NCBI GenBank assembly: GCA_030390025.1
Contig: CM059431.1
Span: 97,714,001-97,778,000, forward strand
Reading direction: 5' to 3'
Source: Squalus acanthias
Taxonomy: Eukaryota
DNA length: 64,000 nucleotides
The translations under genes were made by a program, and so were the position numbers. Each line of letters begins with the position of its first letter. Position 1 is the stretch's first letter. This document shows, in pieces, positions 1-48,339 of the stretch. The notes under the pieces are model-generated. The model was not told the DNA's origin, ran no database searches, and was given only the letters and a program-made list of their open reading frames with translations.

Positions 1-3000
1 GTGCTGTTGGGGAGGGTTTAAACTAAAGTGGCAGGGGGTTGGGAACCTGAGCAGGGAGACAGAGGAAAGGGAAACAAGGATAAAAGCTAAAGACAGGAAG
101 GAGAAAAACAAAAGTAGAAGGCAAAGAACTCAACGGTTTAAATCAAACATGGTCACAGTAAATAATAATTCATATAGGTCTGAGAGCGTTAAAAAAACAA
201 GCCTGAAGGCTTTGTGTCTTAATGCAAGGAGCATTCGGAACAAGGTGGATGAATTAGCTGCGCAAATAGAGGTAAATGAATACGATTTGATTGGGATTAC
301 AGAAACATGGCTCCAGGGTGGCCAAGGCTGGGAACTCAACATCCAGGGTTATTCAATATTTAGGAAAGATAGGCAAAAAAGAAAAGGAGGTGGGGTAGCA
401 TTGCTGGTTAAAGAGGGGATTAACACAATTGAAAGGAAGGATATTAGCTCTGATGATGCGGAATCTGTATGGGTAGAACTGAGAAATAACAAGGGGCAGA
501 AAATGTTAGTGGGAGTGGTATATAGACCTCCAAACAGTAATACGGAGGTTGGGGATGGCATTAAAAGGGAAATTAGAGAAGCATGCAGTAAGGGCACAGC
601 AGTCATCATGGGTGACTTTAATTTACATATAGATTGGACTAACCAAATTAGTAAAAATACTGTGGAGGAGGAATTCCTAAAATGTTTACGAGATGGTTTT
701 CTGGAACAATATGTCGAGGAACCAACCAGAGATCAGGCCATCTTAGACTGGGTATTATGTAATGAGAAAGGATTAATTAGCAATCTTGTTGTACGAGGCC
801 CCTTGGGTCAGAGTGATCATAATATGATAGAATTCTTCATTAGGATGGAGAGTGAAGTAGTTGAATCAGAGACTAGGGTCCTGAATTTAAATAAAGGAAA
901 CTACGATGGTATGAGGCGCGAATTGGGTAGGATTGATTGGGGAATGTCACTCAAGGGGTTGACGGTGGATAGGCAATGGTAAACATTCAAAGACTGCATG
1001 GATGAACTACAGAATTTGTTCATCCCAGTGTGGCATAAGAATAAAACAAAAAGGGTGACTCAACCGTGGCTAACAAGGGAAATTAGGGATAGCATAAGAT
1101 CCAAGGAGAGGGCATATAAATTGGCCAGAAAAAGCGGTAACCCTGAGGATTGGGAGCAGTTTAGGATTCAACAAAGGAGGACAAAGGGATTAATTAAGAA
1201 GGGGAAAATAGAATATGAAAGTAAGCTTGCTGGGAACATAAAAACTGACTGTAAGTTCTTTTATAGATATGTGAAGAGAAAAAGATTAGTGAAATCAAGT
1301 GTAGGTCCCTTGCAGTCAGAAGCAGGGGAAGTTATAATGGGGAACAAAGAAATGGCAGCCCAATTAAATGCATATTTTGGTTCTGTCTTCACAAAGGAGG
1401 ACACAAATAACCTCCCAGAGATGTTGGAGAACATACGGTCTGATGAAAGGGAGAAACTGAAAGAAATCAGTATTTGCAGGGAAATGGTGTTAGGGAAATT
1501 GACGGTATTGAAGGCCGATAAATCCCCAGGGCCTGATAATCTACATCCTAGGGAACTTAAGGAAGTGGCCCTAGAAATAGTAGATGCATTGCTGATCATC
1601 TTCCAACATTCGATGGAATCTGGAACTGTACCCATGGATTGGAGGGTAGCCAATGTTACCCCACTATTCAAAAAGGGTGGTAGAGAGAAAGCGGGGAATT
1701 ACAGACTGGTAAGCCTGACATCGGTATTGGGGAAAATGCTAGAGTCCATTATAAAGGATGTAATAGCTGAGCACTTGAAAAACAGTGACAGGATCGGACA
1801 AAGTCAACATGGATTTACAAAAGGTAAATCGTGCTTGACTAATCTACTGGAATTTTTTGAGGCTGTAACTGGGAAAATAGATAAGGGAGAACCAGTAGAT
1901 GTGGTGTATTTGGACTTTCAAAAGGCTTTCGATAAGGTCCCGCATAAGAGATTAGCGTGTAAAGTTAAGGCACATGGGATTGGGGACAAGGTATTGACTT
2001 GGATAGATAACTGGTTGGTGGACAGAAAGCAGAGAGTAGGAATTAATGGGTCTTTTTCCGAGTGGCAAGCAGTGACTAGTGGGGTACCGCAGGGATCGGT
2101 CCTTGGACCCCAGCTATTCACAATATACATTAATGATCTAGATAAGGGAACTAAATGTAATATCTCCAAGTTTGCAGATGACACAAAGCTGGGTGGGAGT
2201 GTGTGCTGTGAGGAGGATAACGAGAAACTCCAGGATGATTTGGACAGGTTGGGTGAGTGGGCAGAAGCGTGGCAGATGCAATATAACGTGGATAAGTGCG
2301 ATGGTTATCCACTTTGGTGTCAAAAACAGAAAGGCAGACTATTATCTGAATGGCAATAGATTGGGAGAAGGGGAAGTGCAACGAGACCTAGGTGTCCTTG
2401 TGCACCAGTCGCTGAAAGTAAGCATGCAGGTGCAGCAGGCGGTGAAGAAGGCAAATGGTATGTTGGCCTTCATAGCGAAAGGGTTTGAGTATAGCAACAG
2501 AGATGTCCTGCTGCAGTTGTACAGGGCCTTGGTGAGACCACACCTTGAGTACTGTGTGCAGTTTTGGTCGCCTTATCTGAGGAAGGATGTTCTTGCCATG
2601 GAAGGAGTTCAGCGAAGATTCACAAGGCTGATACCTGGGATGGCAGGAATGACATATGAGGAGAGATTGGGTCGATTGGGCTTATACTCACTGGAGTATA
2701 GAAGAATGAGAGGGGCTCTCATCGAAACATATAAAATTCTGACAGGTCTGGACAAACTAGATGCAGGAAGAATGTTCCCGATGGTCGGAGAGTCCAGAAC
2801 CAGGGGTCATAATCTACGGATAACGGGTGAACCATTTAGGACAGAAATGAGGAAGAATTTCTTCACCCAGAGAGTGGTGAATCTGTGGAATTCTCTACCA
2901 CAGAAGGTAGTTGAGGCGAAGTCATTAAATATATTCAAGAATGAGTTAGATATATTTCTTAAAGCTAAAGGTATCAAGGGATATGGGGAGAAGGCAGGTA

Positions 3001-3110
3001 CAGGGTACTGAGTTTGAATGATCAGCCATGATCTCATCGAATGGCGGAGCAGGCTCGAGGGGCCGAATGGCCTACTCCTGCTCCTATCTTCTATGTTTCT
3101 ATGTTTCTAT
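1..3110 (+). mobile_element. CR1 LINE family A: end of ORF1 plus near-complete ORF2 (APE endonuclease + RT), disrupted by a stop at 980-982 and a frameshift near 2300
   Basis: ORFs 149-982, 998-2359 and 2172-3011 carry APE motifs (ITETW, GDFN, SDH) and RT motifs (GVPQGSVLGP, FADD); 3' stem-loop and (TCTATGTT)n tail. Confidence 0.95.
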
Positions 3111-7929: not shown

Positions 7930-10900
7930 CACCGGGGCTAAAAGGGTTAAAGGGAGGACAGGTTGCATAGACTAGGCTTGTATTCCCTTGAATATAAAAG
8001 ATTAAGGGGCTAAAGCAGTTCGGGAGGATTTAAACTAATATGGCAGGGGAATGGGAACCTATGTAGCGAAACAGGGGGAAGTAATATGCAGTCAGAAACA
8101 AATGTTAGAAGGGTGAGAAACAATAGGGGAAGGCCGAGTAAACAAAGGCAAGAAACACAAAGGGCCATACTAAATCATAAGTCTAAAAGGACAAAGGATG
8201 TTAATAAAACAAGCCTAAAGGCTCTGTGTCTTAATGCAAGGAGTATCCGTAATAAGGTGGATGAATTGACTGTGCAAATAGATGTTAACGGATACGATGT
8301 GATTGGGATTACAGAGACGTGGCTCCAGAACAATCAAGGCTGGGAACTGAACATCCAGGGGTATTCAACATTCAGAAAGGATAGAATAAAAGGAAAAGGG
8401 GGTGGGGTAGCATTGCTGGTTAAAGAGGAGATTAATGCAATAGCTAGGAAGGACATCAGCTTGGAGGATGTGGAATCAATATGGGTTGAGCTGCAGAACA
8501 CCAAAGGGCAGAAAACGTTAGTGGGAGTTGTGTACAGACCTCCAAACAGCAGTAGTGAGGTGGGGGAGGGTATGAAACAGGAAATCAGAGGTGCGTGCAA
8601 AAAAGGCACGGCAGTTATCATGGGTGACTTTAATATGCATATAGATTGGGCTACTCAAACTGGAAGCAATACGGTGGAGGAGGATTTCCTGGAGTGTTTA
8701 AGGGATGGTTTCCTAAACCAATATGTTGAGGAACCAACTAGAGGGGAGGCCATCCTGGACTGGGTGTTGTGTAATGAGGAAGGACTAATCAGCAATCTTG
8801 TGGTACAAGGCCCCCTGGGGAAGAGTGACCATAGTATGGTGGAGTTCTACATTAGGATGGAGAAGGAAACAGTTAAGTCAGAGACCATGGTCCAGAACTT
8901 AAATAAGGGCAACTTTGAGGGTATGAGGCGTGAATTGGCGAGGTTAAATTGGCAAGCGATATTTAAGGGGCTATCAGTGGAAGGGCAATGGCAGACATTT
9001 AGATATCGCATGGATGAACTACAACAATTGTACATCCCGGTCTGGCGTAAAAATAAAAAAGGGAAGGTGGCTCAACCATGGCTAACAAGGGAAATCAGGG
9101 ATAGTATTAAAACCAAGGAAGTTGCATACAAATTGGCCAGAAGTAGCAGCAAACCCGGGGACTGGGAGAACTTCAAAACTCAGCAGAGGAGGACGAAGGG
9201 TTTGATTAGGGCAGGGAAAATAAAATATGAAAGGAAGCTTGCAGAGAACATTAAAATGGACTGCAAAAGCTTCTATAAATATGTAAAAAGAAAGAGGTTA
9301 GTAAAAACAAACGTAGGTGCCCTGCAGTCGGAAACAGGGGAAGTCGTAATGGGGAACAAGGAAATGGCAGATCAATTGAACAAGTACTTTGGTTCGGTGT
9401 TTACTGTGGAGGACACAAACAACCTGCCGGAAATAAAAGGGGTCAGAGGATCTGGTAAGAGGGAGGAGCTGAGGGAAATCCTTATTAGTCGGGAAAAGGT
9501 ATTGGGGAAATTGATGGGACTGAAGGCTGAAAAATCCCCGGGGCCTGATGGTCTGCATCCCAGGTACTTAAGGAGGTGGCCTTGGAAATAGTGGATGCAT
9601 TGACGATCATTTTCCAACATTCCTTAGACTCTGGATCAGTTCCGATGGAGTGGAGGGTGGCCAATGTAACCCCTCTTTTTAAAAAAGGAGGGAGGGAGAA
9701 AGCAGGGAACTATAGACCGGTCAGCCTGACATCGGTCGTGGGTAAAATGATGGAAGCAATTATTAAAGATGTCATAACAGACCATTTGGAAAGTGGCGAC
9801 ATGATAGGTCCAAGTCAGCATGGATTTGTGAAAGGGAAATCATGCTTGACAAATCTTCTGGAATTTTTTGAGGATGTTTCCAATAGGGTGGACAGGGGGG
9901 AACCAGTAGATGTGGTGTATTTGGACTTTCAGAAGGCCTTCGACAAGGTCCCACACAAGAGATTGGTGAGCAAAGTTAAAGCACATGGGATTGGGGGTAA
10001 TGTGTTGACGTGGATTGAGAACTGGTTGGCACACAGGAAACAAAGAGTAGGAGTAAATGGGTACTTTTCAGAATGGCAGGCAGTGACCAGCGGGGTACCG
10101 CAGGGTTCGGTGCTGGGACCCCAGCTGTTTACATTATATATTAATGATTTGGACGAAGGGATTAAATGTAATATCTCCAAATTTGCGGATGACACTAAAT
10201 TGGGAGGCAGTGTGAACAATGAGGAGGATGCTAGGAGGCTACAGAGTGACTTGGACAGGTTGGATGAATGGGCAAATGTATGGCAGATGAAGTACAATGT
10301 GGATAAATGTGAGGTTATCCACTTCGGTGGTAAAAATAGAGAGGCGGACTATTACCTGAATGGTGGCAGATTAGGGAAAGGGGAGGTGCAACGAGACCTG
10401 GGCGTCATGGTACATCAGTCACTGAAGGTGGGAATGCAAGTGCAGCAGGCAGTCAAGAAAGCAAACGGAATGATGGCCTTCATAGTAAGGGGATTTGAGT
10501 ACAGGAGTAGGGAGGTGATGCTGCAGTTGTACAGGGCCTTGGTGAGGCCACACCTGGAGTATTGTGCGCAGTTTTGGTCTCCTAACTTAAGGAAGGACAT
10601 TCTTGCTATTGAGGGAGTGCAGCGAAGGTTCACTAGATTGATTCCTGTGATGGCCGGACTGACATATCAAGAAAGATTGGGTCAACTGAACTTGTATCCT
10701 CTGGAGTTCAGAAGAATGAGGGGGGATCTTATAGAGACATTTAAAATCCTGACTGGTTTAGACAAATTAGATGCCGGCAGAATGTTCCCAATGTTAGGGA
10801 AAACTAGAACCAGGGGTCACAGTCTAAGGATTAAGGGGAAGCCATTTAAGACTGAGCTGAGGAGGAACTTCTTCACCCAGAGAGTGGTGAATCTATGGAA

Positions 10901-11490
10901 TTCTCTTCCACAAAAGGTTGTTGAGGCCAGTTCGCTAAATATATTCAAAAGGGAGTTAGATATAATACTCACAACTAGGGGGATCAAGGGGTATGGCGAG
11001 AAAGCAGGAATGGGGTACTGAGGTAGCATGTTCAGCCATGAACGCATTGAATGGCGGTGCAGGCTCGAAGGACCGAATGGTCTACTCCTGTACCTATTTT
11101 CTATGTTTCTATGTTTCTATGATTGAAATGAGATGTTTAAGATGATTAAAGGAGTTGACAGGGTAGATAGAAACTATTTCCTCTGGTGGGGGGAGTCCAG
11201 AACAAGGGGGCATAACCTTAAAATTAGAGCCAGGCCGTTCAGGGGTGATGTCAGGAAGCACTTCTTCACACAAAGGGTGGTGGAAATCTGGAACTCTCTC
11301 CCCAAAAATCTGTTGAGGCTGGTGGTCAACTGAAAATTTCAAAACTGAGATTGATAGATTTTTGTTGGCTAAGGTTATTAAGGGTCATGGAACCAAGGTG
11401 GGTAGATGGAGTTAAGATACAGATCAGCCATGATCTAATTGAATGGCGGAACAGGCTCGAGGAGTTGAATGGCCTCCTCCTGTTCCTATC
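7930..11490 (+). mobile_element. Old CR1 3' fragment (about 7930-8008 and 11121-11490) split by CR1-C
   Basis: Decayed RT C-terminal sequence on both sides of the CR1-C insertion; ORF 11133-11333. Confidence 0.65.
8009..11120 (+). mobile_element. CR1 LINE family C, full ORF2 with one frameshift near 9563, plus last ORF1 codons
   Basis: ORFs 8086-9591 and 9576-11021 give APE + RT; (TCTATGTT)n tail. Confidence 0.95.
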
Positions 11491-14004: not shown

Positions 14005-17000
14005 TAGAAACATAGAAACATAGAAGATAGGAGCAGGAGTAGGCCATTCGGCCCCTCGAGCCTGCTCCGCCATTCGATGAGATCATGGCTGATCATCCAA
14101 ACTCAGTACCCTGTACCTGCCTTCTCCCCATATCCCTTGATACCTTTAGCTTTAAGAAATATATCTAACTCATTCTTGAATATATTTAATGACTTCGCCT
14201 CAACTACCTTCTGTGGTAGAGAATTCCACAGATTCACCACTCTCTGGGTGAAGAAATTCTTCCTCATTTCTGTCCTAAATGGTTTACCCGTTATCCGTAG
14301 ATTATGACCCCTGGTTCTGGACTCTCCCACCATCGGGAACATTCTTCCTGCATCTAGTTTGTCCAGACCTGTCAGAATTTTATATGTTTCAATGAGAGCC
14401 CCTCTCATTCTTCTATACTCCAATGAGTATAAGCCCAATCGACCCAATCTCTCCTCATATGTCATTCCTGCCATCCCAGGTATCAGCCTTGTGAATCTTC
14501 GCTAAACTCCTTCCATGGCAAGAACATCCTTCCTCAGATAAGGCGACCAAAACTGCACACAGTACTCAAGGTGTGGTCTCACCAAGGCCCTGTACAACTG
14601 CAGCAGGACATCCCTGTTCCTATACTCAAACCCTTTTGCTATGAAGGCCAACATACCATTTGCCTTCTACACCACCTGCTGCACCTGCATGCTTACTTTC
14701 AGCGACTGGTGCACAAGGACACCCAGGTCTCGTTGCACTTCCCCTTCTCCCAATCTATTGCCATTCAGATAATAGTCTGCCTTTCTGTTTTTGACACCAA
14801 AGTGGATAACCTCGCACTTATCCACGTTATATTGCATCTGCCACGCTTCTGCCCACTCACCCAATCTGTCCAAATCATCCTGGAGTTTCTCGGTATCCTC
14901 CTCGCAGCACACACTCCCACCCAGCTTTGTGTCATCTGCAAACTTGGAGATATTACATTTAATTCCCTTATCTAGATCATTAATGTATATTGTGAATAGC
15001 TGGGGTCCAAGGACCGATCCCTGCGGTACCCCACTAGTCACTGCTTGCCACTCAGAAAAAGACCCATTAATTCCTACTCTCTGCTTTCTGTCCACCAACC
15101 AGTTCTCTATCCAAGTCAATACCTTGCCCCCAATCCCATGTGCCTTAACTTTACACGCTAATCTCTTATGCGGGACCTTATCGAAAGCCTTTTGAAAGTC
15201 CAAATACACCACATCTACTGGTTCTCCCTTATCTATTTTCCCAGTTACATCCTCAAAAAATTCCAGTAGATTAGTCAAGCACGATTTACCTTTTGTAAAT
15301 CCATGTTGACTTTGTCCGATCCTGTCACTGTTTTTCAAGTGCTCAGCTATTACATCCTTTATAATGGACTCTAGCATTTTCCCCACTACCGATGTCAGGC
15401 TTACTGGTCTGTCATTCCTCGCTTTCTCTCTACCACCCTTTTTGAATAGTGGGGTAACATTAGCTACCCTCCAATCCATGGGTACAGTTCCAGATTCCAT
15501 CGAATGTTGGAAGACGATCAGCAATGCATCTTCTATTTCTAGGGCCACTTCCTTAAGTACCTTAAGATAAATTGACCCTTAGTGTTAGGGGGGATTAAAT
15601 ATGTGGGGTTATGGGGATAGGATGGGATATGTTAGGGGGAATTAAATACGTGGGGTTACGGGGGTAGGGTGGGATATGTGTACTGTGGGGATTAAAGCAG
15701 GGACAGGGTACTGGATTTGGATGATCAGCCATGATCGTATTGAATGGCGGAGCAGGCTCGACGGGCCGAATGGCCTACTCCTGCTCCTAGATTCTATGTT
15801 TCTATGTTTCTATGTTACCCTAGGATGTAGATTATCAGGCCCTGGGGATTTATCGGCCTTCAATACCGTCAATTTCCCTAACACCATTTGCCTGCAAATA
15901 CTGATTTCTTTCAGTTCCTCCCTTTCATCAGACCGTATGTTCTCCAACATCTCTGGGAGGTTATTTGTGTCCTCCTTTGTGAAGACGGAACCAAAATATG
16001 CATTTAATTGGGCTGCCATTTCTTTGTTCCCCATTATAACTTGTCCCGCTTCTGACTGCAAGGGACCTACACTTGATTTCACTAATCTTTTTCTCTTCAC
16101 ATATCTATAAAAGCTCTTACAGTCAGTTTTTATGTTCCCAGCAAGCTTACTTTCATATTCTATTTTCCCCTTCTTAATTAATCCCTTTGTCCTCCTTTGT
16201 TGAATCCTAAACTGCTCCCAATCCTCAGGGCTACCGCTTTTTCTGGCCAATTTATATGCCCTCTCCTTGGATCTTATTCTATCCCTAATTTCCCTGGTTA
16301 GCCATGGTTGAGTCACCCTTTTTGTTGTATTCTTATGCCACACTGGGATGAACAAATTCTGTAGTTCATCCATGCAGTCTTTGAATGTTTGCCATTGCCT
16401 ATCCACCGTCAACCCCTTGAGTGACATTCCCCAATCAATCCTACCCAATTCGCGCCTCATACCATCGTAGTTTCCTTTATTTAAATTCAGGACCCTAGTC
16501 TCTGATTCAACTACTTCACTCTCCATCCTAATGAAGAATTCGATCATATTATGATCACTCTGACCCAAGGGGCCTCGTACAACAAGATTGCTAATTAATC
16601 CTTTCTCGTTACATAATACCCAGTCTAAGATGGCCTGCTCTCTGGTTGGTTCCTCGACATATTGTTCCAGAAAACCATCTCGTAAACATTCTAGGAATTC
16701 CTCCTCCACAGTATTTTTACTAATTTGGTTAGCCCAATCTATATGTAAATTAAAGTCGCCCATGATGACTGCTGTGCCCTTACTGCATGCTTCTCTAATT
16801 TCCCTTTTAATGCCATCCTCAACCTCCGTATTACTGTTTGGAGGTCTATTTTCCACTCTCACTAACGTTTTCTGCCCCTTGTTATTTCTCAGTTCTACCC
16901 ATACAGATTCCGCATCATCAGAGCTAATATCCTTCCTTTCAATTGTGTTAATCCCCTCTTTAACCAGCAATGCTACCCCACCTCCCTTTCTTTTTTGCCT

Positions 17001-17022
17001 ATCTTTCCTAAATATTGAATAA
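14005..17022 (-). mobile_element. CR1 family A copy, 5'-truncated in APE
   Basis: ORFs 15810-17102, 14667-15548, 14103-14474; TSD TACTTCA at 13998-14004 and 17023-17029. Confidence 0.92.
15562..15816 (+). mobile_element. 5'-truncated SINE (HE1/V-SINE-like body) with CR1-derived 3' tail
   Basis: G-rich body, then AAAGCAGGGACAGGGTAC..GATCAGCCATGATC..(TCTATGTT)n matching the CR1 3' end; interrupts CR1-A in opposite orientation. Confidence 0.7.
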
Positions 17023-20000
17023 TACTTCAGTACTTTCCAGTTTCTTGCCATTAAGATAATAACTTGCTCTACTATTTTTCCTGCCAAAGTGCATAACCTC
17101 ACACTTTCCAGTATTGTATTCCATCTGCCAAATCTCTGCCCACTTACTTAGCCTGTCTATGTCCCCTTGCAGATTTTTTATGTGCTCCTTACTCACTACT
17201 TTCCCTCCCATCTTAGTATCATCTGCAAACTTTGATATGTTACACTCGGTCCCCTCCTCCAAATCGTTAATATAGATTGTAAAGAGTTGGGGACCCAGCA
17301 CTGACCCCTGCGGAACACCACTAGTTACTGATTGCCAGTCTGAGAATGAACTATTTATCCCAACTCTCTGCCTTCTGTTAGATAGCCAATCCTCTATCTA
17401 TGCCAGAATATTACCCCCAATCCCGTGATTTTTTATCTTAAGCAATAATCTTTTGTGTGGCACCTTGTCAAATGCCTTTTGGAAGTCTAAATACACCACA
17501 TCCACTGGTTCCCCTTTATCCACCCTGTGTGTTACTTCCTCAAAGAACTCCAGCAAATTTGTCAAACATGACTTCCCCTTCATAAAACTATGCTGACTTT
17601 GTCCTATTAAATTATGATTATCCAAATGTCCCGTTACTGTCTCCTTAATAATGGACTCCAAAATTTTACCTACCACAGATGTTAGGCTAACCGGTCTATA
17701 GTTTCCAGCCTTCTGTCTACTGCCCTTTTTAAATAAGGGTGTTACATTAGCAGTTTTCCAGTCTGCTGGGATCTTTGCTGAGTCCAGGGAGTTTTGGAAA
17801 ATTATTACCAATGCATCCACAATCCCTACCGCCACTTCCCTCAAGACCCTAGGATGTAAGCCATCACTCCAGGTGATTTATCCGCCTTGAGTCCCATTAT
17901 TTTACCGAGTACCACTTCCTTAGTGATTTTGATCGTGTTTAGCTCCTCCCCCCCTATAGCCCCCTGTTTGTCCAGTGTTGGGATATTCTTAGTGTCCTCT
18001 ACTGTAAAGACTGATACAAAATATTCATTCAGTGTATTTGCCATCTCCATATTTCCCACCATTAATTTCCTAGTCTCATCCTCTAAGGGACCAACATTTA
18101 CTTTAGCCACCCTTTTTCTTTTTATATAACTATAAAAACTCTTACTATCTGTTTTTATATTTTTTGCTAATTTACTTTCATAATCTATCTTCCCTTTCTT
18201 AATCAATCTTTTTGTTATTTTTTGCTGTTTTTTAAAGTTTTCCCAATCCTCTATCCTCCCACTAGATTTGGCTACCTTATAGGCCCTTGTTTTTAGTCAA
18301 ATACTATCCTTAATTTCTTTACTTAGCCACGGATGACTGTCTTTTCTTTTACACCCTTTTCTTCTCAGTGGAATATATATTTTTTGGAAGTTGTAAAATA
18401 ACTCCTTAAATGTACACCACTGATCATGTATCGTCTTACCCTTTAATCTATTTTCCCAATCCACTCTACTCAATTCCGCTCGCATACCTTCATAGTCTCC
18501 TTTATTCAAGCTTAGCACGCTTGTTTGAGATCCAACCTTCTCACCCTCTAATTGAATATGGAATTCAACCATGTTATCGTCACTCATTCCAAAGGGGATC
18601 CTTTACTAGGACATTTTTAATTAATCCTGTCTCGTTAAACTGGACCTGATGTAAGGTTGCTTGCCCCCTGGTCGGTTCAGTTACATACTGCTCAAGAAAC
18701 CCATCCCTAATACACTCAATGAACTCATCCACAAGGCAGCCCTGCCCAATTTGATTTGTCCAATTAATATGATAGTTAAAATCCCCCATAATTAAAGATG
18801 TTCCCTTATTACAAGCCTGAACTATTTCCTGATTGATACTCCATCCAACAGAGTTGCAACTGTTCGGAGGCCTATAGACTACGCCCACTAGTGTTTTTTC
18901 CCCCTTATTATTCCTTATCTCCACCCAAACTGTTTCATTATCCTGATCTTTTGACCCAATATCATTTCTCTGTATTACAGTGATTCCTTCCTTTATTAAC
19001 ATAGCCACCCCACCTCCCCTTCCTTCCTGCCTGTCCTTCCTGATCGCTAAATAACCTGGTATGTTTAATTCCCAGGCAAAATAGAATATGAGAGTAAACT
19101 AGCCAGAGAAATAAAAATAGACTGTAAAAGCTTCTATTGGTATGAAAAAAGGAAAAGATTAGTGAAAATAAATGTGGGTCCCTTACAGGCTGAGACAGGA
19201 GAAATTATAATGAGGAATAAGGAAATGACAGTGAAATTAAACAAATATTTTGTGTCTGTCTTCACAGAAGATGCAAAAAACTCCTGGAAATAGTGGAGAA
19301 CCAAGGCTCTAGTGAGAATGAGGAACTGAAAAAAATTAGTATTAGTACAAAAATAGTAATGGAGAAATTAATGGGACTGAAAGCCAATAAATCCCATGCA
19401 CCTGATGGCCTACATCCTAGGGTTTTGAAAGAGGTGGCTATAGAGATAGTGGCTGCATTGGTTGTCATCTTCCAAAATTCCATAGATTCTAGAACGGTTC
19501 CCACAGATTGGAAGACAACAAATGTAATCCCACTATTTAAGAAAGGAGGGAGAGAGAAAACGGAGAACTCCAGACCAGTTAGCCTGACATCAGTAGTAGG
19601 GAAAATGCTAGAATTATTATTAAGGACGTGGTAACAGGGCACTTAGAAAATAATAATAGGATTGAGCAGCGTCAACATGGATTTATGAAAGGGAAATCAT
19701 GTTTGACGAATCTGTTAGAGTTTTTTGAGGTTGTAACTAACAGAATAGATAAGGGGGAACCAGTGGATGTGGTGCATTTGTATTTTCAGAAGGCATTCGA
19801 TAAGGTGCCACACAAGAGGTTATTAAACAAAATTACGGCTCATGGAATTGGGGTAATATACTAGCATGAATTGAGGATCGGTTAACGGACAGAAAACAGA
19901 GAGTAGGAATAAATGGGTAATTTTCAGGTTGGCAGGCTGTAACTAGTGGGGTACCGCAAGGATCAATGCTTGGGCCTCAGCTATTCACAATCTATATCAA

Positions 20001-31500: not shown

Positions 31501-32060
31501 CAGAGCGGGGCAGCGGTGAGAGTGGAGGGAGAGCGCTCCGGCTCGACCCGGAGCACCCAGTCCAATCCAATCTTAACTTTCACCCCGGATCCCCTGTCTC
31601 TCTCTCTCCCCGGCCCCCCGCACACTCTCGGCCAACAGCCCGGCTCCAATGGCCCCTCCACCCGGGGGAGGGCCGGCCTCCTTCTACCCCCCGGCCCCGC
31701 TCTCCCTCCCCGGGGGTTGGGCTCTCCCTCTCGCCTTCCCACCCCCGCCCCGGTGACTCTATGTTCCCCCTTTAAAGCGGCTCCGGGAGCGGCGGGGGAT
31801 GAGGGAGATCCCAGTCCCGGGGGCCGGGCCCCCCTCCACCACCCAACAACTCACAAACCACCAGCCGGAGCCGCCTACTGACACTCGGGGCCGGGGAGCG
31901 GCCGCAGCCCTCCCCGGGCTCCACATTTACCCCTCTTTCTGTCAAAATGGCTGGTGTTCTGAAGCTGATCTTTTGTTCCGCCCCAGCACTGACGCTGCAC
32001 TCTCTCCCTGTGTGTGTGTGTGTGTGAGATGAATGATCTTGCAGCCCCCGGGCTCCTTAC

Positions 32061-32196
32061 CTTGGTATTTTGCATCGATTTCCCTCATCAGAGACACGTT
32101 CCTCTGGAGATCAAAAGGCAGAGACTCGATGGAATCCAAATAGTCCTCCACATAGCTCACAACCTGCGTCTGCTCCCCGTTCGCAGGACTCAGCAT
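32061..32196 (-). CDS. ING1: Inhibitor of growth protein 1, coding exon 1 (p33ING1b-type N-terminus)
   Basis: MLSPANGEQTQVVSYVEDYLDSIESLPFDLQRNVSLMREIDAKYQ; donor AAG|GTAAGG at 32061/32060. Confidence 0.97.
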
Positions 32197-32549
32197 CTTG
32201 CAAGCTACATTTGTTGATGTGTTGGGGAAGGAGGGGAGGGGAGCGGAGGCAGACTTTCTCTCTCTCTCTCTCTCTTTCTGCTACAAGTGCAAGGTTTGCA
32301 CCTCCTCCTGCTGCTGCTCACTCTTGATTTTTAACAATAAAATGCAGAGGCTGAGTGGGCAGGGCCGGGCAGGGGCCCCCTCTCCCCACACACACACACA
32401 CACACGGTGGAGCGGCGGCGGCTGCGGGGTGCAGGCGGGCCCCGCTCTGGCTGGCCTGGCTTGGCTTGGCCGGCACAGTGCGATCCCGGCACTGGCACTG
32501 GCTCCGGGCTCTGGATCCAGCGTGGACACTCCGGCCCGGGGAGAGACTG

Positions 32550-33658
32550 GGCCGCACCGCGCCTGCGCGCCCGCCGCCCAGCCAGCCCCGCCCCGCTCAT
32601 TACCATACCATTGTGACGTCGCCGCCCCGCTTTCTTCTATTTCCAGCCGATCTCTTTTTTTTCTTCTTTCCACGCCCCCCACCTCCGGATCTTTCAGCCG
32701 CACTTTTCCCTTAAAAAGTAGATTCGGCTGCGCTTTGCCCGACAAAAAAAAATTCAAACCCCCTTCAGCTGTTATTTAGTGATTGACGTGGCATTTCGCC
32801 CAATCACATCGCGCCTCAGGGAAAGTTCCGAGCAATCAGCGCTGCCGGGAGGCGGGATCTCCTCGTTCAATTTTTATTTAGTGATTGACGTGGGGTTTGG
32901 TCCAATCACACCTCGCCTCCGGGAAGTTTGGGACCAATCGGCGGTGCCCGGGAGGCAGGACCTCGCCCTCCCATCCAACGGCGGGTTGTCAACAGCCCAA
33001 CCGCACGGGACTGCGCAGGCGCGGCCGCGGGGCCCGCTGGGAGTTGGAGTCCGCTGCCTGGCCGGCGCCCCTTGACAAGCCGGAGCGGAAAGACTACACC
33101 TTCCAGCAGGCAGCGCGCCGGCCCGGTTTGAAATTAGCGGGCGGGCGGTTCAAAGGTCTGCGCTGGCAGCCACCTCCAGCTCAGAGACCGGGGTGGGGGA
33201 GGGGATGCAGCGTTGCTATGGAGCCGCCCGTTGCTAGGCTGTTAAAAGAATTCCCAGGCCACAGCCGTCCGATTTATTTTGTACCGGGGGGGGGCGTCGG
33301 TCACCCCTCGAGCTTCGCCATCTCCACTCCCGACCCCGTGCCCTCTCCTGTTCTAGGGGTAGAGGTGGCAGCAACTCCCCCCCCTGGGGCCCCGGTGATG
33401 CGGTAAGCCGTGATGGACGGCGGCTGGGATGGAGGGCGGGGCTAGTGTGGGGTAGGGCGGGGCTAGTGGGGGCGGAGCCGGGGCTGGTGGGGGCGGAGCC
33501 AGCGTGTGGGGGAGCTCGGATGGATGCAGGGGCGGAGCTAGGGCAAGGGGCGGGGCCAGGTCGGTCCTCTAGCCCCGCCTCTTGCGGCGCCGCCATTTCG
33601 GAGCGCGGCCTAGTCCATAGGCTGCCAGCACGAGTGTCGCTTGGCCCCGGCTCCCAGG
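32550..33658. promoter_or_regulatory. Bidirectional ING1/CARS2 CpG-island promoter
   Basis: CpG-rich; TGACGTC near 32614, CCAAT boxes, GGGCGG array 33430-33560, CGCCATTT (YY1-like) near 33590, X-box-like GTTGCTATGG 33212. Confidence 0.8.
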
Positions 33659-33885
33659 ATGAGGACGCTGCTGGCCGGCTGGAGCTTGGCCGCATGGCGT
33701 CAGCTGAGCGGGGCGACGGTCCGCGGCTGCGCCTCGGGCTCGGCGCTGCCGGGCGGCTGTGGTGCGAAGGAGCAGCGGCGCGGCTGGCAGCAACCGAGGG
33801 GGCACCCCGCCGGCCTGCGGGTCTACAACAGCCTGACGCGGAGCAAAGAGCCGCTAGTGCTCGCCGAGCCGGCCACTGCCTCCTG
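33659..33885 (+). CDS. CARS2: Mitochondrial cysteinyl-tRNA synthetase, coding exon 1 (targeting peptide + start of catalytic domain)
   Basis: MRTLLAGWSLAAWRQ..GWQQPRG..GLRVYNSLTRSKEPLVLAEPATASW; Arg-rich, acid-poor N-terminus; head-to-head with ING1 as in human; donor TG|GTACAG. Confidence 0.9.
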
Positions 33886-33937
33886 GTACAGCGCTCTTCA
33901 AACTATTCCCATCCCGCGGCGGCAGGCCCGCACCCCC

Positions 33938-34838
33938 GGCCTGGCTCAATGGACAACACCCTCGCCTCTGGGGCAGAGGGTCGTGGGTTCAAGTCCCACT
34001 CCAGAGACTTGAGCACAAAATCCAGGCTGACACTCCCAGTGCGGCGCTCCCTCAGTACTGCCCTTCCGACAGTGCTGCGCACCCTCAGTACTGCCCCTCC
34101 GACAGTGCGGCACTCCCTCAGCGCTGCCCCTCCGACAGTGCGGCCCTCCAACAGTGCGGCACTCCCTCAGTGCTGCCCCTCCGACAGTGCGGCGCTCCCT
34201 CAGTACTGCCCCTCCGACAGTGCGGCACTCCCTCAGTACTGCCCCTCCGACAGTGCGGCACTCCCTCAGCACTGCCCCTCCGACAGTGCGGCACTCCCTC
34301 AGCGCTGCCCCTCCGACAGTGCGGCACTCCCTCTACTGCCCCTCCGACAGTGCGGCACTCCCTCAGTACTGCCCCTCCGACAGTGCGGCACTCCCTCAGT
34401 ACTGCCCCTCCGACAGTGCGGCACTCCCTCAGTACTGCCCCTCCGACAGTGCGGCACTCCCTCAGTACTGCCCCTCCGACAGTGCGGCACTCCCTCAGCG
34501 CTTCCCCTCCGACAGTGCGGCGCTCCCTCAGCGCTGCCCCTCCGACAGTGCAGCACTCCCTCAGTACTGCCCCTCCGACAGTGCGGCGCTCCCTCAGTAC
34601 TGCCCCTCCGACAGTGCGGCGCTCCCTCAGTACTGCCCCTCCGACAGTGCGGCGCTCCCTCAGTACTGCCCCTCCGACAGTGCAGCGCTCCCTCAGTACT
34701 GCCCCTCCGACAGTGCGGCGCTCCCTCAGCACTGCACCCGGAATGTCAGCCTGGATTGTGGGCTCGAGTGTCTGGAGTGGGTATTGAATCCACAACCTTC
34801 TGACTCAGTCAAGAAGGCTACCCACTGAGCCACGGCTG
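33938..34838. repeat. 33-bp minisatellite (about 34037-34735) bracketed by two inverted SINE tRNA heads
   Basis: Plus head 33938-34040 and minus head 34735-34838; unit CCCTCCGACAGTGCGGCACTCCCTCAGTACTGC. Confidence 0.85.
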
Positions 34839-36450
34839 GTACCTATTTAAATTTTTCTTTATTACGGTTCATTTAGGCTTTTTCAAAATAGTTTATATAT
34901 TTTTTTGTAAGTTTGAAGCCATTAAGTGAGTTAGATTGGGGAAGTAGGCAAGGCAGTATTTGCAAGCTTGCAGTGCCAGTAGCAAACACACGTTTTAGAG
35001 GAAACACTTTCTCGTTGTTGTGATGAATTGACCAGTGAACGTTAAGGCTTTTGATGCCTGTCACGGTGTCACTTCTATTGCAGAGGCAGTGTGAATGGAT
35101 AATGCAAATATCGTCATTTTACACTCGTATAGGATAGTTCTGCACTTTGTCTAACATCAAGCAATTGTCTGTCAGTTAATTTGCAGTAAAAATTATTTTG
35201 AGTGAATAGCTTAACTGCCTTATGTAACAGTTTTGCCTCAAAGTCATGGAGATTTCCACGAGTTAAATGGTGATGAGGGTCAGGGAAAGAAGTGTTGAAC
35301 ACAATGTAAAAGGGATACCCGTACATAAGAAATAGGAGCAGGTGTAGGCCATTCGGCCCCTCTTAGCCTGCTCCGCCATTCTGATCTTGGCCTCAAAGCC
35401 ACTTCCCTGCCCGCTTCCTTAACCCTTAATTCCCCTGTTTTTCAAATATCTGTCTATCTCCACTTTGAATATATTCAATGACCCAGCCTCCACAGCTCTC
35501 TGGGGTGGAGGATTCCAAAGATTCACAACCCTCTGAGAGAAGAAATTCCTCCTCATCTCTGTTTTAAATGGGCGACCCCTTATTCTGAAACTATGCCCCC
35601 TAGTTCTAGATTCCCCCACGAGGGGGAACATCCTCCCTGCATCTACCCTGTCAAGCCCCCTCAGAATCTTATGTTTCAATAAGATCACCTCTCATTCTTC
35701 TAAACTCCAATGAGTATAGGCTCAACCTTTCCTCATAAGACAACCCCTTCAACTCAGGAATCAACCTAGTGAACCTTCTCTGAACTGCCTCCAATGCAAG
35801 TATATCCTTCCTTAAATAAGGAGCCCAAAACTGTACGCAGTACTCCAGGTGTGGTCTCACCAGCGCCCTGTACAATTGTAGCAAGACTTCCCTACTTTTA
35901 TACTCCATCCCCCTTGCAATAAAGGCCAATATTCCATTTGCCTTCCTAATTACTTGCTGTACCTGCATGCTAACTTTTTGTGTTTCATGTACGAGGTCAC
36001 CCAGATCACTCTGTACCTCAGCATTCTGTCATCTCTCTCCATTTAAATAATATTTTACTTTTTTATTCTTCCTACCTCACATTTTCCCACATTATACTCC
36101 ATCTGCCAAATTTTTGCCCACCCGCTTAACCTATCTATATCCCTTTGCAGACTCTTTGTGTCCTCCTCACAACTTGCTTTCCCACCTATCTTTGTATCGT
36201 CAGCAAATTTGGCAACAGTACACTTGGTCCCTTCATCCAAGTCATTAATACAGATTGTAAATAGTTGAGGCCCCAGCACTGATCCCTGTGGCACCCCACT
36301 AGTTACAGTTTGCTAACCTGAAAATGACCCATTTATCCCGACTCTCTGTTTTCTGTTAGTTATGATGCGGAGATGCCGGTGTTGGACTGGGGTGGACAAA
36401 ATTGAGAGGTCGCACAACACCAGGTTATAGTCCAACAGTTTTATTTTAAA

Positions 36451-44259: not shown

Positions 44260-47200
44260 CATAGAAACATAGAAGATAGGAGCAGGAGTAGGCCATTCGG
44301 CCCCTCGAGCCTGCTCCGCCATTTAATGAGATCATGGCTGATCATCCAAACTCAGTACCCTGTACCTGCCTTCTCCCCATATCCCTTGATACCTTTAGCT
44401 TTAAGAAATATATCTAACTCATTCTTGAATATATTTAATGACTTGGCCTCAACTACCTTCTGTGGTAGAGAATGCCACAGGTTCACCACTCTCTGGGTGA
44501 AGAAATTCTTCCTCATTTCTGTCCTAAATGGCTTACCCCTTATCCTTAGATTATGACCCCTGGTTCTGGACTCTCCCACCATCGGGAACATTCTTCCTGC
44601 ATCTAGTTTGTCCAGACCTGTCAGAATTTTATGTTTCGATGAGATCCCCTCTCATTCTTCTATACTCCAGCGAGTATAAGCCCAATCTCTCCTCATATGT
44701 CATTCCTGCCATCCCAGGTATCAGCCTTGTGAATCTTCGCTGAACTCCCTCCATGGCAAGAACATCCTTCCTCAGATAAGGCGACCAAAACTGCACACAA
44801 TACTCAAGGTGTGGTCTCACCAAGGCCCTGTACAACTGCAGCAGGACATCCCTGTTCCTATACTCAAACCCTTTCGCTATGAAGGCCAACATACCATTTG
44901 CCTTCTTCACCGCCTGCTGCACCTGCATGCTTACCTTCAGCGACTGGTGCACAAGGACACCCAGGTCTCGTTGCACTTCCCCTTCTCCCAATCTATTGCC
45001 ATTCAGATAATAGTCTGCCTTTCTGTTTTTGACACCAAAGTGGATAACCTCGCATTTATCCACGTTATATTGCATCTGCCATGCTTCTGCCCACTCACCC
45101 AACCTGTCCAAATCATCCTGGAGTTTCTCGGTATCCTCCTCGCAGCACACACTCCCACCCAGCTTTGTGTCATCTGCAAACTTGGAGATATTACATTTAG
45201 TTCTCTTATCTAGATCATTAATGTATATTGTGAATAGCTGGGGTCCAAGGACCGATCCCTGCGGTACCCCACTAGTCACTGCTTGCCACTCGGAAAAAGA
45301 CCCATTAATTCCTACTCTTTGCTTTCTGTCCGCCAACCAGTTCTCTATCCAAGTCAATACCGTGCCCCCAATCCCATGTGCCTTAACTTTACACGCTAAT
45401 CTCTTATGCGGGACCTTATCGAAAGCCTTTTGAAAGTCCAAATACACCACATCTACTGGTTCTCCTTTATCTATTTTCCCAGTTACATCCTCAAAAAATT
45501 CCAGTAGATTAGTCAAGCACGATTTACCTTTTGTAAATCCATGTTGACTTTGTCCGATCCTGTCACTGTTTTTCAAGTGCTCAGCTATTACATCCTTTAT
45601 AATGGACTCTAGCATTTTCCCCACTACCGATGTCAGGCTTACCGGTCAGTAATTCCCCGCTTTCTCTCTACCACCCTTTTTGAATAGTGGGGTAACATTA
45701 GCTACCCTCCAATCCATGGGTACAGTTCCAGATTCCATCGAATGTTGGACGATGATCAGCAATGCATCTACTATTTCTAGGGCCACTTCCTTAAGTACCC
45801 TAGGATGTAGATTATCAGGCCCTGGGAATTTATCGGCCTTCAATCCCGTCAATTTCCCTAACACCATTTCCCTGCAAATACTGATTTCTTTCAGTTCCTC
45901 CCTTTCATCAGACCGTATGTTCTCCAACATCTCTGGGAGGTTATTTGTGTCCTCCTTTGTGAAGACAGAACCAAAATATGCATTTAATTGGGCTGCCATT
46001 TCTTTGTTCCCCATTATAACTTGCCCCGCTTCTGACTGCAAGGGACCTACACTTGATTTCACTAATCTTTTTCTCTTCACATATCTATAAAAACTCTTAG
46101 TCAGTTTTTATGTTCCTTGCAAGCTTACTTTCATATTCTATTTTCCCCTTCTTAATTAATCCCTTTGTCCTCCTTTGTTGAATCCTAAACTGCTCCCAAT
46201 CCTCAGGGTTACCGCTTTTTCTGGCCAATTTATATGCCCTCTCCTTGGATCTTATGCTATCCCTAATTTCCCTTGTTAGCCACGGTTGAGTCACCCTTTT
46301 TGTTTTATTCTTATGCCACACTGGGATGAACAAATTCTGTAGTTCATCCATGCAGTCTTTGAATGTTTGCCATTGCCTATCCACCGTCAACCCTTTGAGT
46401 GACATTCCCCAATCAATCCTACCCAATTCGTGCCTCATACCATCGTAGTTTCCTTTATTTAAATTCAGGACCCTAGTCTCTGATTCAACTACTTCACTCT
46501 CCATCTTAATGAAGAATTCTATCATATTATGATCACTCTGACCCAAGGGGCCTCGTACAACAAGATTGCTAATTAATCCTTTCTCGTTACATAATACCCA
46601 GTCTAAGATGGCCTGATCTCTGGTTGGTTCCTCGACACATTGTTCCAGAAAACCATCCCGTAAACATTCTAGGAATTCCTCCTCCACAGTATTTTTACTA
46701 ATTTGGTTAGCCCAATTTATATGTAAATTAAAGTCACCCATGATGACTGCTGTGCCCTTACTGCATGCTTCTCTAATTTCCCTTTTAATGCCATCCCCAA
46801 CCTCCGTATTACTGTTTGGAGGTCTATATACCACTCCCACTAACGTTTTCCGCCCCTTGTTATTTCTCAGTTCTACCCATACAGATTCCGCATCATCAGA
46901 GTTAATATCCTTCCTTTCAATTGTGTTAATCCCCTTTTTAACCAGCAATGCTACCCCACCTCCCTTTCTTTTTTGCCTATCTTTCCTAAATATTGAATAC
47001 CCCTGGATGTTGAGTTCCCAGCCTTGGCCACCCTGGAGCCATGTTTCTGTAATCCCAATCAAATCGTATTCATTTACCTCTATTTGCGCAGCTAATTCAT
47101 CCACCTTGTTCCGAATGCTCCTTGCATTAAGACACAAAGCCTTCAGGCTTGTTTTTTTTAACGCTCTCAGACCTATATGAATTATTATTTACTGTGACCA

Positions 47201-47323
47201 TGTTTGATTTAAACCGTTGAGTTCTTTGCCTTCTACTTTTGTTTTTCTCCTTCCTGTCTTTTGCTTTTATCCTTGTTTCCCTTTCCTCTGTCTCCCTGCT
47301 CAGGTTCCCAACCCCCTGCCACT
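44260..47323 (-). mobile_element. CR1 family A copy, full ORF2 with small indels
   Basis: ORFs 46097-47137, 45646-46080, 44629-45624, 44352-44591; near-identical to 1-3110. Confidence 0.95.
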
Positions 47324-48339
47324 TAGTTATTTATTCTTGTATGCTTCCTACCTGGTTTAACTGCATGCTTAGAATCTATGCAATGATTAAGGTCAGTAAA
47401 GCTATCTTTGAACATATCTCCACTATCCCCATGCTGAATTAGTTTAACTGCTTTCTGAAAGCAAGCTCAACACCATCAGCCAGCCTTTGTGCTCCCAGGA
47501 AGTTAAGATGGCGGCCGTCCCTCCTAAACAACTTAGCTTGCCCAGCGAACACCTCCTAATTATCGATGAAGTGGAGCCGCTTCTTTTTGCAAAGGTCCCG
47601 AAGCCAGCTATTGAATCCTACGATTCGGCTATTCCTCTCCAGCGATCTGGACACGACTGGTAATAGCCTGGAGACTACTACCCTTGCACCCCTTTGCTGA
47701 AGGTCAGCTATGAGGCCTTTGTAGGAATCCTACAAAACAAATGGATTTCTATCCATTATATCATTAGTACCAATATGTAAATCTACTACAGTACCTTGGC
47801 ACTCACCTTTCATCAGATCATCCACACAGTCCCGGAGATCAGCTTCCTTGGCCCCTGAAGGACAAGACTGCTCTTGACAGAGCCTTGCCTCTACACAGGG
47901 TGCTGTCTGTATCCCTGATGATAGAATCCTTTATGAGGATTGCTCGCTGCCTCTTGCTCTTCCTTGGCTGTTCACCCAACGATGTCCTCTTGAACTTTGC
48001 AGCCTTCCCCTTACCTTTTCCAATATGTTTATATGAGTGAGCATTGAGGGTGATCAGTCTCACTGGGGCTGACCTCACTGCCTGTTGTGTCCTCCAATAG
48101 CTGCATGTCTTCTGGTTCTACCATCACTGTCCATTTCAAAATCGTATCCAAATACACTACATCCAATCCTCTTTTTTTATAATTTAAAAAGTTTGTCGTC
48201 ATATCTCTCAGCCTATTTCCCTCCACAAAGAATAATCCTAAGGTTTGGAGCCTAGTCTTGTAAATAAATAAATAAAATCTAAGTTTAAGGGACATCTTTG
48301 TCCTCTTTTGCACCCTCTAGAACCTCAATATCAGATTCA

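Follow-up and report, generated by a model that had tools for sequence, protein, structure and literature searches.

How ribosomes reach the second open reading frame (ORF2) of a vertebrate long interspersed nuclear element (LINE) is the question raised by the stretch analysed here, 64,000 nt of the Squalus acanthias genome (contig CM059431.1, positions 97,714,001 to 97,778,000 of the forward strand; hereafter the window). The window opens within the last codons of the ORF1 of a CR1-group LINE, and these codons end in a slippery heptamer, T_TTA_AAC, directly before the stop codon. An earlier note, made from the letters of the window, had proposed that the ORF2 protein (ORF2p) is produced as an ORF1-ORF2 fusion by -1 ribosomal frameshifting at this site. 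Every comparative sequence test that followed supports the proposal, with the slip itself deduced from sequence. We document below the anatomy of the junction, its conservation, the constraint on its nucleotides and the absence of a usable ATG from three families, and conclude that ORF2 is probably decoded by programmed -1 frameshifting at the last two sense codons of ORF1, giving an ORF1-ORF2 fusion.

The ORF2 of these elements matched the Pfam domains Exo_endo_phos, Exo_endo_phos_2 and RVT_1, all above their cut-offs, corresponding to an APE-type endonuclease and a reverse transcriptase (RT), and ORF1 matched Lipase_GDSL_2, an SGNH/GDSL esterase, at 45-55 bits against a cut-off of 32.9. The elements are classed here as CR1-group LINEs, in which ORF1 is of the zinc-knuckle/coiled-coil/esterase type and ORF2 encodes an endonuclease-RT; they could belong to either the CR1 or the L2 clade. 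Passages of a survey of this group describe the esterase ORF1 as the sole identifiable ORF1 type of vertebrate CR1 and L2 (PMC13343379). Relatives were sought in the 3.7-Gb S. acanthias assembly that contains the window. The comparison at the DNA level covers ten lineages: families A, C, E1, G, H, I and F of S. acanthias and the metagenomic loci L091, L093 and L094. Family C copies were collected by protein search of the genome; for families G, H, I and F, divergent ORF1 proteins served as queries and short stretches around the ORF1 ends were then compared.

The ORF1/ORF2 junction in the window and in related families

Three copies in the window, here called A, C and E, bear on the junction. 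Their features are as follows.

1..26, + strand: last ORF1 codons of copy A, in the frame of window base 3, ending GGT TTA AAC TAA (15-26); window base 1 is position 5001 of genomic locus L031
17..23, + strand: slippery heptamer T_TTA_AAC of copy A, in the ORF1 register; TTTAAACTAA in 27/30 family A loci
24..26, + strand: ORF1 stop codon TAA of copy A, adjoining the heptamer
34..43, + strand: G-tract GGGGG-TT-GGG of copy A, beginning 11 nt past the heptamer
2..982, + strand: ORF2 frame of copy A (-1 with respect to ORF1), its first open segment, which includes the endonuclease domain; first ATG at 149-151
8010..8038, + strand: start of copy C, 5'-truncated about eight codons before the ORF1 stop, ...GCA GTT CGG GAG GAT TTA AAC TAA
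8029..8035, + strand: slippery heptamer T_TTA_AAC of copy C, with the stop TAA at 8036-8038; 8/8 family C copies are identical here
8046..8055, + strand: G-tract GGGG-AAT-GGG of copy C
8014..11021, + strand: ORF2 frame of copy C, 8014-9591 and then, after a copy-specific shift, 9549-11021; first ATG at 8086
47331..47700, - strand: copy E (older family E1), a decayed esterase ORF1 tail ending ...DGRHLNFLGAQRLADGVELAFRKQLN*, followed by 36 codons from the start of its own -1 frame, VKLIQHGDSGDM...
47442..47448, - strand: heptamer G_TTA_AAC of copy E, with the stop TAA at 47441-47439 (CAG TTA AAC TAA at 47450-47439)
44350..47330, - strand: A-type copy, truncated at its 5' end within the junction motif (..AACTAAGTGGCAGGGGG..) and directly adjoining copy E; its 3' limit is approximate

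In copy A the heptamer was found directly before the stop, as the earlier note had read it, and the -1 frame is open over 2-982, in frame with the ATG at 149 and with the Exo_endo_phos domain inside. Copy C was likewise as first described, with GAT TTA AAC TAA at 8027-8038 and the -1 frame open over 8014-9591 in frame with the ATG at 8086. In both copies the -1 frame spans the site without a stop and continues into the Exo_endo_phos endonuclease and RVT_1; the ORF2 of copy A carries later stops and shifts and is continued by 983-2359 and 2142-3011. The ORF1 frames of the two copies, originally guessed from a few codons, turned out to be right. Upstream of window base 1 the genome carries a GDSL/SGNH esterase ORF (L031 4391-5026) ending ...DGLHLGRAGTDVLGGVFASAVGEGLN*, with the ORF2 frame at L031 5002-5982, and in a full-length C copy (L062) ORF1 is 314 aa long, combines CxxC motifs and a helical stretch with the esterase, and ends ...AKAVREDLN*.

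Copy E bore out the first description only in part. Its ORF1 does end in G-TTA-AAC-TAA, but the ORF2 that follows is foreign, belonging to the A-type copy, and the G form was present in just 3 of 30 E1 loci (T_TTA_AAC in 15, other single changes in 8, unmatched by the search pattern in 4), a spread that neutral decay of old copies would be expected to give. Since homology to the window copy stops by query position 379 (~window 47322) in all 29 other family loci (80-90% identity), and the A-type copy extends from 47330 downward, copy E is a composite of two elements and the ORF2 behind its ORF1 is not its own. By coordinate arithmetic (47441-47330 = 111), this A-type ORF2 lies in the 0 frame. 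In other E1 copies their own ORF2 comes next, in the -1 frame, reading FKLIQQGDS...NCFYVNARSV. The join between the E1 and A-type copies (window 47322-47335, - strand) falls within shared AACTAA letters, and 5' truncation at the heptamer or a few codons before it was also seen in copy C (8010) and in locus L022. Microhomology at the 5' junctions, or a site at which reverse transcription tends to stop, may account for such truncations.

By itself, the nonamer TTAAACTAA shows no enrichment in the window, with 4 exact matches and, when at most one mismatch is allowed, 22 matches against 17.65 expected; the exact match at 42750 was set aside as an unrelated chance match. The longer downstream motif TGGCAGGGGNNTGGGAACCT occurs three times in the window against 0.12 expected. 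Judged by the comparative data across lineages, the placement of the nonamer at junctions is not chance.

The four families found with divergent ORF1 queries have the following junctions.

Family G: ORF1 ends ...REHLN; TTTAAAC, then TAG; ORF2 in the -1 frame
Family H: ORF1 ends ...RGGLN; TTTAAAC, then TAA; ORF2 in the -1 frame
Family I: ORF1 ends ...GGGLN; TTTAAAC, then TAA; ORF2 in the -1 frame
Family F: ORF1 ends ...R[AT]LN; TTTAAAC, then TAA; ORF2 in the -1 frame

All seven S. acanthias families thus have an esterase ORF1 that ends NNT TTA AAC TAR and an ORF2 in the -1 frame. In all ten lineages a canonical X_XXY_YYZ heptamer stands in the ORF1 register, is followed immediately by TAA or TAG, and is succeeded by ORF2 (Exo_endo_phos plus RVT_1) in the -1 frame; the case raised in the earlier note, of a motif kept with ORF2 in some other frame, did not occur among these lineages at the DNA level. 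The heptamer was TTTAAAC in 19 and GTTAAAC in one of 20 small junction loci, and the stop codon adjoined it in every one of them. In the young F subfamily ORF2 was open in the -1 frame in 4/4 copies; two older F copies have a stop or an indel there.

The -1 frame is also bounded upstream. A stop codon shuts it five codons ahead of the heptamer in families A, C, G, I and F and, as read by eye, six codons ahead in E1; in copy A this stop is a TAG whose final base is window base 1. Therefore a shift into this frame must fall within about 24 nt, where the heptamer lies. The upstream stop occupies the same position in five families, as TAG in A, I and F and as TAA in C and G, and two C copies that have lost it (L066 and L067, with CAA and TAC) have longer open frames of 1047 and 1054 aa. 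Downstream, five of the seven families (A, C, G, I and, with Cys for Trp, H) share the -1-frame peptide FKLxWQG, the start of which lies in the heptamer; F and E1 keep FKL only.

Families A, H and I (window 17-20 with 14-16; L072, L074) have a second canonical heptamer, G_GGT_TTA, which overlaps the first in the same register (GGG GGT TTA AAC), making tandem slip sites. In one family I copy, L086 (G000:C1302:12061-12421), the G-run before the heptamer is one base shorter, such that ORF1 and ORF2 share one frame of 563 aa; this genomic copy directly encodes the predicted fusion. Family G is very young. Identity is 100% over ORF2 codons 1-200 in at least 150 copies of family C (all 150 of the matches listed, with a commonest open frame of 1002 aa) and over codons 1-98 in at least 150 copies of family G; most of these copies have frames of about 1000 aa. 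First-look candidate counts genome-wide were ~120,000 for family C and ~76,000 for family G. This uniformity points to very recent or ongoing activity of both families.

Nucleotide constraint and relatives beyond this genome

A codon-by-codon comparison of the last 22 ORF1 codons in the ten lineages separates constraint on nucleotides from constraint on protein. The penultimate Leu codon is TTA in all nine lineages that have Leu there, although TTA accounts for 16% of the Leu codons of these ORFs; elsewhere, Leu columns differ from lineage to lineage, with CTG, TTG, CTT, CTA and CTC. The last Asn codon is AAC in 10/10 lineages, with AAC accounting for 49% of Asn codons. Even the codon before Leu, which encodes G, D, H, G, G, A, H, C or S, has T as its third base in 8/9. 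In fixed register, mean pairwise identity among the seven families was 0.97 over the heptamer and stop, 0.54-0.59 in the ORF1 flank and 0.35 from 30 nt downstream; among the ten lineages the corresponding values were 0.88, 0.37-0.44 and 0.32. The synonymous sites of the heptamer are therefore frozen while the flanks vary, which is conservation beyond coding needs.

The ends of ORF1 proteins (ORF1p) extend this picture to other hosts. Protein searches gave 77 and 150 listed matches, 215 of them distinct, and 135 of these had a DGxH block 15-45 aa from the end. A terminal Asn was present in 90 of the 135, as Leu-Asn in 71, Gly-Asn in 11 (9 of them preceded by Gln) and Lys-Asn in 3. The Leu-Asn end lay exactly 26 residues after the Asp in 63/71, and the residue before it was compatible with a T-ending codon in 70/71. 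Proteins of this kind came from sharks, rays and skates and, at 33-35% identity, from turtles, a tegu and a snake. The Leu-Asn, Gln-Gly-Asn and Ser/Ala-Lys-Asn ends may be read as UUA AAC, (CA)G GGA AAC and (NN)A AAA AAC. The three heptamers suggested by these ends are named, in the passages of a frameshifting review covered here, among the most shift-prone on mammalian ribosomes (PMC5009743).

Other classes of ORF1p end were seen as well. The teleost-type class (DGLHPS...) has no terminal Asn. Five relatives (P0120, P0157, P0164, P0190 and P0212) end in Phe-Phe-Arg/His, where a U-rich slip site could be hidden, and P0203 ends in Gly-Phe-Arg. One entry, P0008, is labelled a Pseudomonas aeruginosa SGNH/GDSL hydrolase on a 4159-base contig; it has 58% identity over 94% of the shark ORF1p, ends ...REGLN and is probably vertebrate LINE DNA in a bacterial assembly.

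A metagenome search returned four loci, three of which reach the ORF1 end.

L091: ORF1 ends CTG CAG GGA AAC TAG (G_GGA_AAC); the next ORF is in the -1 frame, with an endonuclease domain by Pfam
L094: ORF1 ends TCG TTA AAC TAG (G_UUA_AAC); the next ORF is in the -1 frame, with an endonuclease domain by Pfam
L093: ORF1 ends TGT TTA AAC TAA, with a premature TGA four codons earlier; the next ORF is in the -1 frame, with the ITETWL endonuclease motif

The heptamer G_GGA_AAC had been predicted beforehand from the Gln-Gly-Asn protein ends and was then found in the DNA of L091. Across lineages, then, canonical slippery heptamers are exchanged one for another: U_UUA_AAC, G_UUA_AAC and G_GGA_AAC. Searches for further lineages at the DNA level gave phage GDSL lipases (25% identity) or nothing in viral contigs and nothing in genome contigs, and the Gln-Gly-Asn class has no close family in the S. 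acanthias genome, the best identity being 43%.

Initiation codons, downstream RNA and alternative readings

The earlier note had asked whether expression of ORF2 depends on a downstream ATG, and three families bear directly on this. In a full-length family G copy (L090) the frame runs for 983 codons from the heptamer, with Exo_endo_phos at residues 55-254 and the first Met at residue 256; the first 98 codons of this family are Met-free and 100% identical in all 150 matches listed, and its commonest open frame is 988 aa. The ORF2 frame of family H has 968 codons and its first Met at codon 167, and that of family I has its first Met at codon 179, with a stop at 193 in the copy examined. Families G, H and I thus lack an ATG upstream of the endonuclease domain and throughout its N-terminal half. 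In these families an ORF2p initiated at an AUG would therefore miss the endonuclease entirely or by half; the ORF2 frames are intact in the family G and H copies examined. Elsewhere the first ORF2 ATG is at codon 45 (A), 20 (C) or 17 (F), at non-homologous positions. Overall, no in-frame ATG overlaps or adjoins the ORF1 stop in the S. acanthias families, in which the first one lies 17 to 256 codons past the heptamer; the ATG beside the stop in C and G (TAATATGG or TAGTATGG) is out of the ORF2 frame. Nor is there a fixed near-cognate start codon, the third codon past the heptamer varying among AAG, ATA, GTA, ATT, ACT and AAT.

These observations suggest a mechanism in which the slip would occur while UUA occupies the P site and AAC the A site, just ahead of the ORF1 stop. 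Both tRNAs would re-pair one base back, on UUU and AAA, and decoding would go on with CUA in the ORF2 frame. Most ribosomes would terminate, yielding abundant ORF1p, and a minority would produce the fusion (in copy A, ...GEGLN followed by LKWQG...). The shift is predicted to be inefficient, at a level determined by the heptamer together with the stop beside it; low efficiency would be fitting for a LINE with little need of ORF2p. The G-tract 8-13 nt downstream possibly helps, by means other than a hairpin.

The hairpin-capable, G-rich tract ascribed to copies A and C at the outset survives as a G-rich tract only. The downstream RNA is purine-rich and predicted to be unstructured, and a downstream hairpin was rejected as a stimulator, the fold energies being no better than those of shuffled sequences. 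A run of at least four G begins 8-13 nt past the heptamer in 10/10 lineages, in differing amino-acid contexts, and a second GGG follows the first G-run by 7-8 nt in 7/10. Elsewhere, a G-quadruplex (PMC3919603) and a protein-bound linear motif (PMC7939443) are described, in the passages covered, as frameshift stimulators. A wider conjecture, which we offer tentatively and rather doubt, is that CR1-group LINEs, which form the main LINE group of vertebrates other than mammals, make their endonuclease-RT solely as an ORF1-ORF2 fusion through a hairpin-free site. The stimulator would be the adjacent stop together with the linear G-tract, acting through a bound protein (possibly ORF1p, in a feedback on ORF2 dosage) or a transient G-quartet, and the site would represent a structure-independent class of eukaryotic -1 signal older than the split between sharks and amniotes.

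Several points weigh against decoding of ORF2 by frameshifting. First, no stimulatory structure was predicted. In five minimum free energy (MFE) folds of 80-100 nt, made with models that leave pseudoknots outside and with the E1 fold starting 14 nt past the heptamer, the downstream RNA was no better than shuffles (z -0.28, +1.21 and +0.33), and the same was true when the heptamer was included (z +0.66 and +0.01). G-quadruplex-aware MFE gave z from -0.83 to +0.98 in the ten lineages, none better than shuffles, and a four-tract G-quadruplex motif (loops of at most 12) was present among them in family A only. Long-range duplexes of the G-tract in the full elements G, C and H (-24.4, -22.2 and -21.7 kcal/mol) resembled the means of shuffled queries (-22.9, -22.3 and -22.7), and their best partners lay at non-homologous offsets. 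Second, the agreement of the seven families is conservation and not independent origin, the families being related. Third, the arrangement is not universal, since 45 of the 135 ORF1p ends have no terminal Asn, although some of these keep Lys-Asn at the same position with a short extension. Fourth, L091 has an in-frame ATG three codons before the heptamer in the ORF2 frame, at which its ORF2 could start. More generally, the absence of an ATG is not decisive for frameshifting, because translation of human L1 ORF2 was reportedly found to be AUG-independent (by Alisch, in 2006). Fifth, no ORF1-ORF2 fusion protein of any LINE was found in the literature examined. Finally, one result in favour of frameshifting calls for caution: contigs of four public runs with four organism labels list no variant at 8009-8049 and many from 8050 on, but the table holds the best-supported differences, with 27 further ones outside it, and contigs drop rare variants. 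In organism D, the most distant label, 46 of 53 contigs match only partly, and depth is concentrated at 8015-8059.

The main rival is AUG-independent termination-reinitiation, in which ribosomes stop at UAA or UAG and restart nearby in the ORF2 frame, a route that has been proposed for human L1, with the conserved island serving as a tethering or restart signal. We consider this unlikely. It would accommodate the stop that adjoins the conserved motif in 10/10 lineages, the lack of a predicted hairpin or pseudoknot of the kind typical of efficient frameshift sites, and the conserved G-tract, which could belong to a restart signal. There is also a precedent of sorts, in that translation of the second ORF of two-ORF non-LTR (non-long terminal repeat) elements is called unclear and SART1 uses stop-start coupling (passages of PMC3708506 and PMC5009743). 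However, reinitiation needs no slippery heptamer in the ORF1 register and leaves both the exchange of U_UUA_AAC, G_UUA_AAC and G_GGA_AAC and the frozen synonymous sites unexplained. Neither does it fix ORF2 to the -1 frame, as is seen in every lineage, and it finds no ORF2-frame ATG at the stop and no conserved near-cognate codon. The conservation in five of seven families of a -1 peptide that begins inside the heptamer likewise speaks against it.

A second alternative is that the motif serves another function, for example at the C-terminus of ORF1p, where Leu-Asn may be needed, or in packaging or processing of the RNA, and that ORF2 is expressed independently of it, for instance from a subgenomic or spliced RNA. 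The prevalence of terminal Asn (90/135) and of Leu-Asn (71/135) among ORF1p ends fits this reading, as does an island of about 45 nt whose conservation at the nucleotide level extends past the heptamer. Selection on protein, however, would not freeze TTA in 9/9 and AAC in 10/10 lineages, or the third base of a variable codon, and swaps of Leu for Gly or Lys that each give a canonical heptamer (at the DNA level, Gly) speak against a specific role of Leu-Asn. As far as contigs can tell, no joint that would remove ORF1 was present in those of the first three runs, and in the fourth run a single contig, X11, jumps over 8049-8341, a segment on the downstream side of the junction. This explanation seems to us highly improbable.

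Transcriptional slippage or editing at TTTAAA, adding or removing one base so that some RNAs encode the fusion, can practically be dismissed: copy L086, with its shorter G-run and fused frames, shows that such variants can arise, but no indels are listed over the junction in contigs of the four runs (a weak point, since rare variants do not show in contigs and it is a guess that the runs are RNA), and T3A3 is not a long homopolymer of the kind at which polymerase slippage is known.

Elsewhere in the window, 14400-19900 is a nest of 5'-truncated CR1 fragments on both strands, with RT and endonuclease pieces of at least three copies and no ORF1/ORF2 junction kept. Outside the LINEs, 32000-35000 has a GC content of 0.58 against ~0.45 elsewhere and long overlapping open frames on both strands, among them one of 521 aa (33238-34803, + strand); the sole domain match in this stretch, Mucin-like, is sub-threshold.

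Significance and comparison with known systems

The literature covered comprised a frameshifting review, a 2026 survey of the vertebrate CR1 group, and papers on the ZfL2-1 esterase, 2A peptides and CR1 and Jockey ORF1, including passages of PMC5009743, PMC13343379, PMC3905857, PMC3708506, PMC4316615, PMC4255032, PMC4120745 and PMC5911963. No claim of a slippery site or frameshift for CR1 or L2 was found there, and an early remark on overlapping CR1 ORFs may exist. We rate as new the putative canonical-heptamer -1 site in an element group where it had not been described, and its unusual structure-less context; -1 frameshifting itself is known. The junction constitutes a conserved, sequence-defined signal that lends itself to direct tests, in a LINE group that is dominant in most vertebrate genomes. 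The signature of heptamer, stop and G-tract could serve as a marker for intact full-length CR1/L2 copies and help in annotating an ORF2 that lacks an ATG. The site would also be a natural example of U_UUA_AAC acting, if it does so, without a predicted pseudoknot in a vertebrate genome.

Among LINEs, human L1 and SART1 are the best-studied cases and do not use frameshifting. In the passages covered, human L1 ORF2 is said to be expressed by some unknown mechanism rather than by bypassing (PMC5009743), the translation of the second ORF of two-ORF non-LTR elements is called not clear, and silkworm SART1 is described as having a UAAUG stop-start overlap (both PMC3708506). The CR1-group elements resemble these two in having a bicistronic RNA, a presumably rare ORF2 product and no conventional scanning start (PMC3708506, PMC5009743). 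They are unlike them in having no ATG over the stop, an ORF2 fixed in the -1 frame and a slippery heptamer constrained at synonymous sites. A -1 frameshift is stated for ORF2 of the Dictyostelium LINEs TRE5-A and TRE3-A, for which the passages of that paper covered here describe no conserved slippery heptamer or comparative support (PMC5911963). These elements differ from CR1 in their amoebal hosts, their clade and their type of ORF1.

Viral sites offer closer parallels. The ORF1a/1b sites of nidoviruses have heptamers identical to those of CR1, U_UUA_AAC in coronaviruses and G_UUA_AAC in equine arteritis virus. Nidovirus sites need a strong pseudoknot downstream, and the stop of their 0 frame does not adjoin the heptamer. 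The RNA downstream of the CR1 heptamer is, in contrast, purine-rich and predicted to be unstructured. Passages of a review list U_UUA_AAC and G_GGA_AAC among the heptamers most shift-prone on mammalian ribosomes and give G_UU(A) for equine arteritis virus (PMC5009743). In the arterivirus PRRSV, the shift that gives nsp2TF is stimulated by a protein complex on a downstream linear C-rich motif, according to the part of the source covered (PMC7939443). This may be an analogy for a linear tract at a fixed distance without predicted structure, with the difference that the CR1 tract is G-rich and that no binding protein is known for it.

Retroviral and LTR-retrotransposon Gag-Pol junctions share with the CR1 site a canonical heptamer at the end of a structural first ORF and an enzyme ORF in the -1 frame, and in both a minority fusion would be expected to set the ratio of products. 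PEG10, a domesticated Gag-Pol relative, has the heptamer G_GGA_AAC, which is also that of L091. The CR1 site, known here from sequence, differs in that the element is non-LTR, ORF1 encodes an esterase protein and not Gag, the stop adjoins the heptamer and no pseudoknot or hairpin is predicted. If the reading presented here is true, a Gag-Pol-like fusion of ORF1p and ORF2p would fix their ratio and explain cis-preference physically, and non-LTR elements would stand closer to retroviruses in their strategy of expression.

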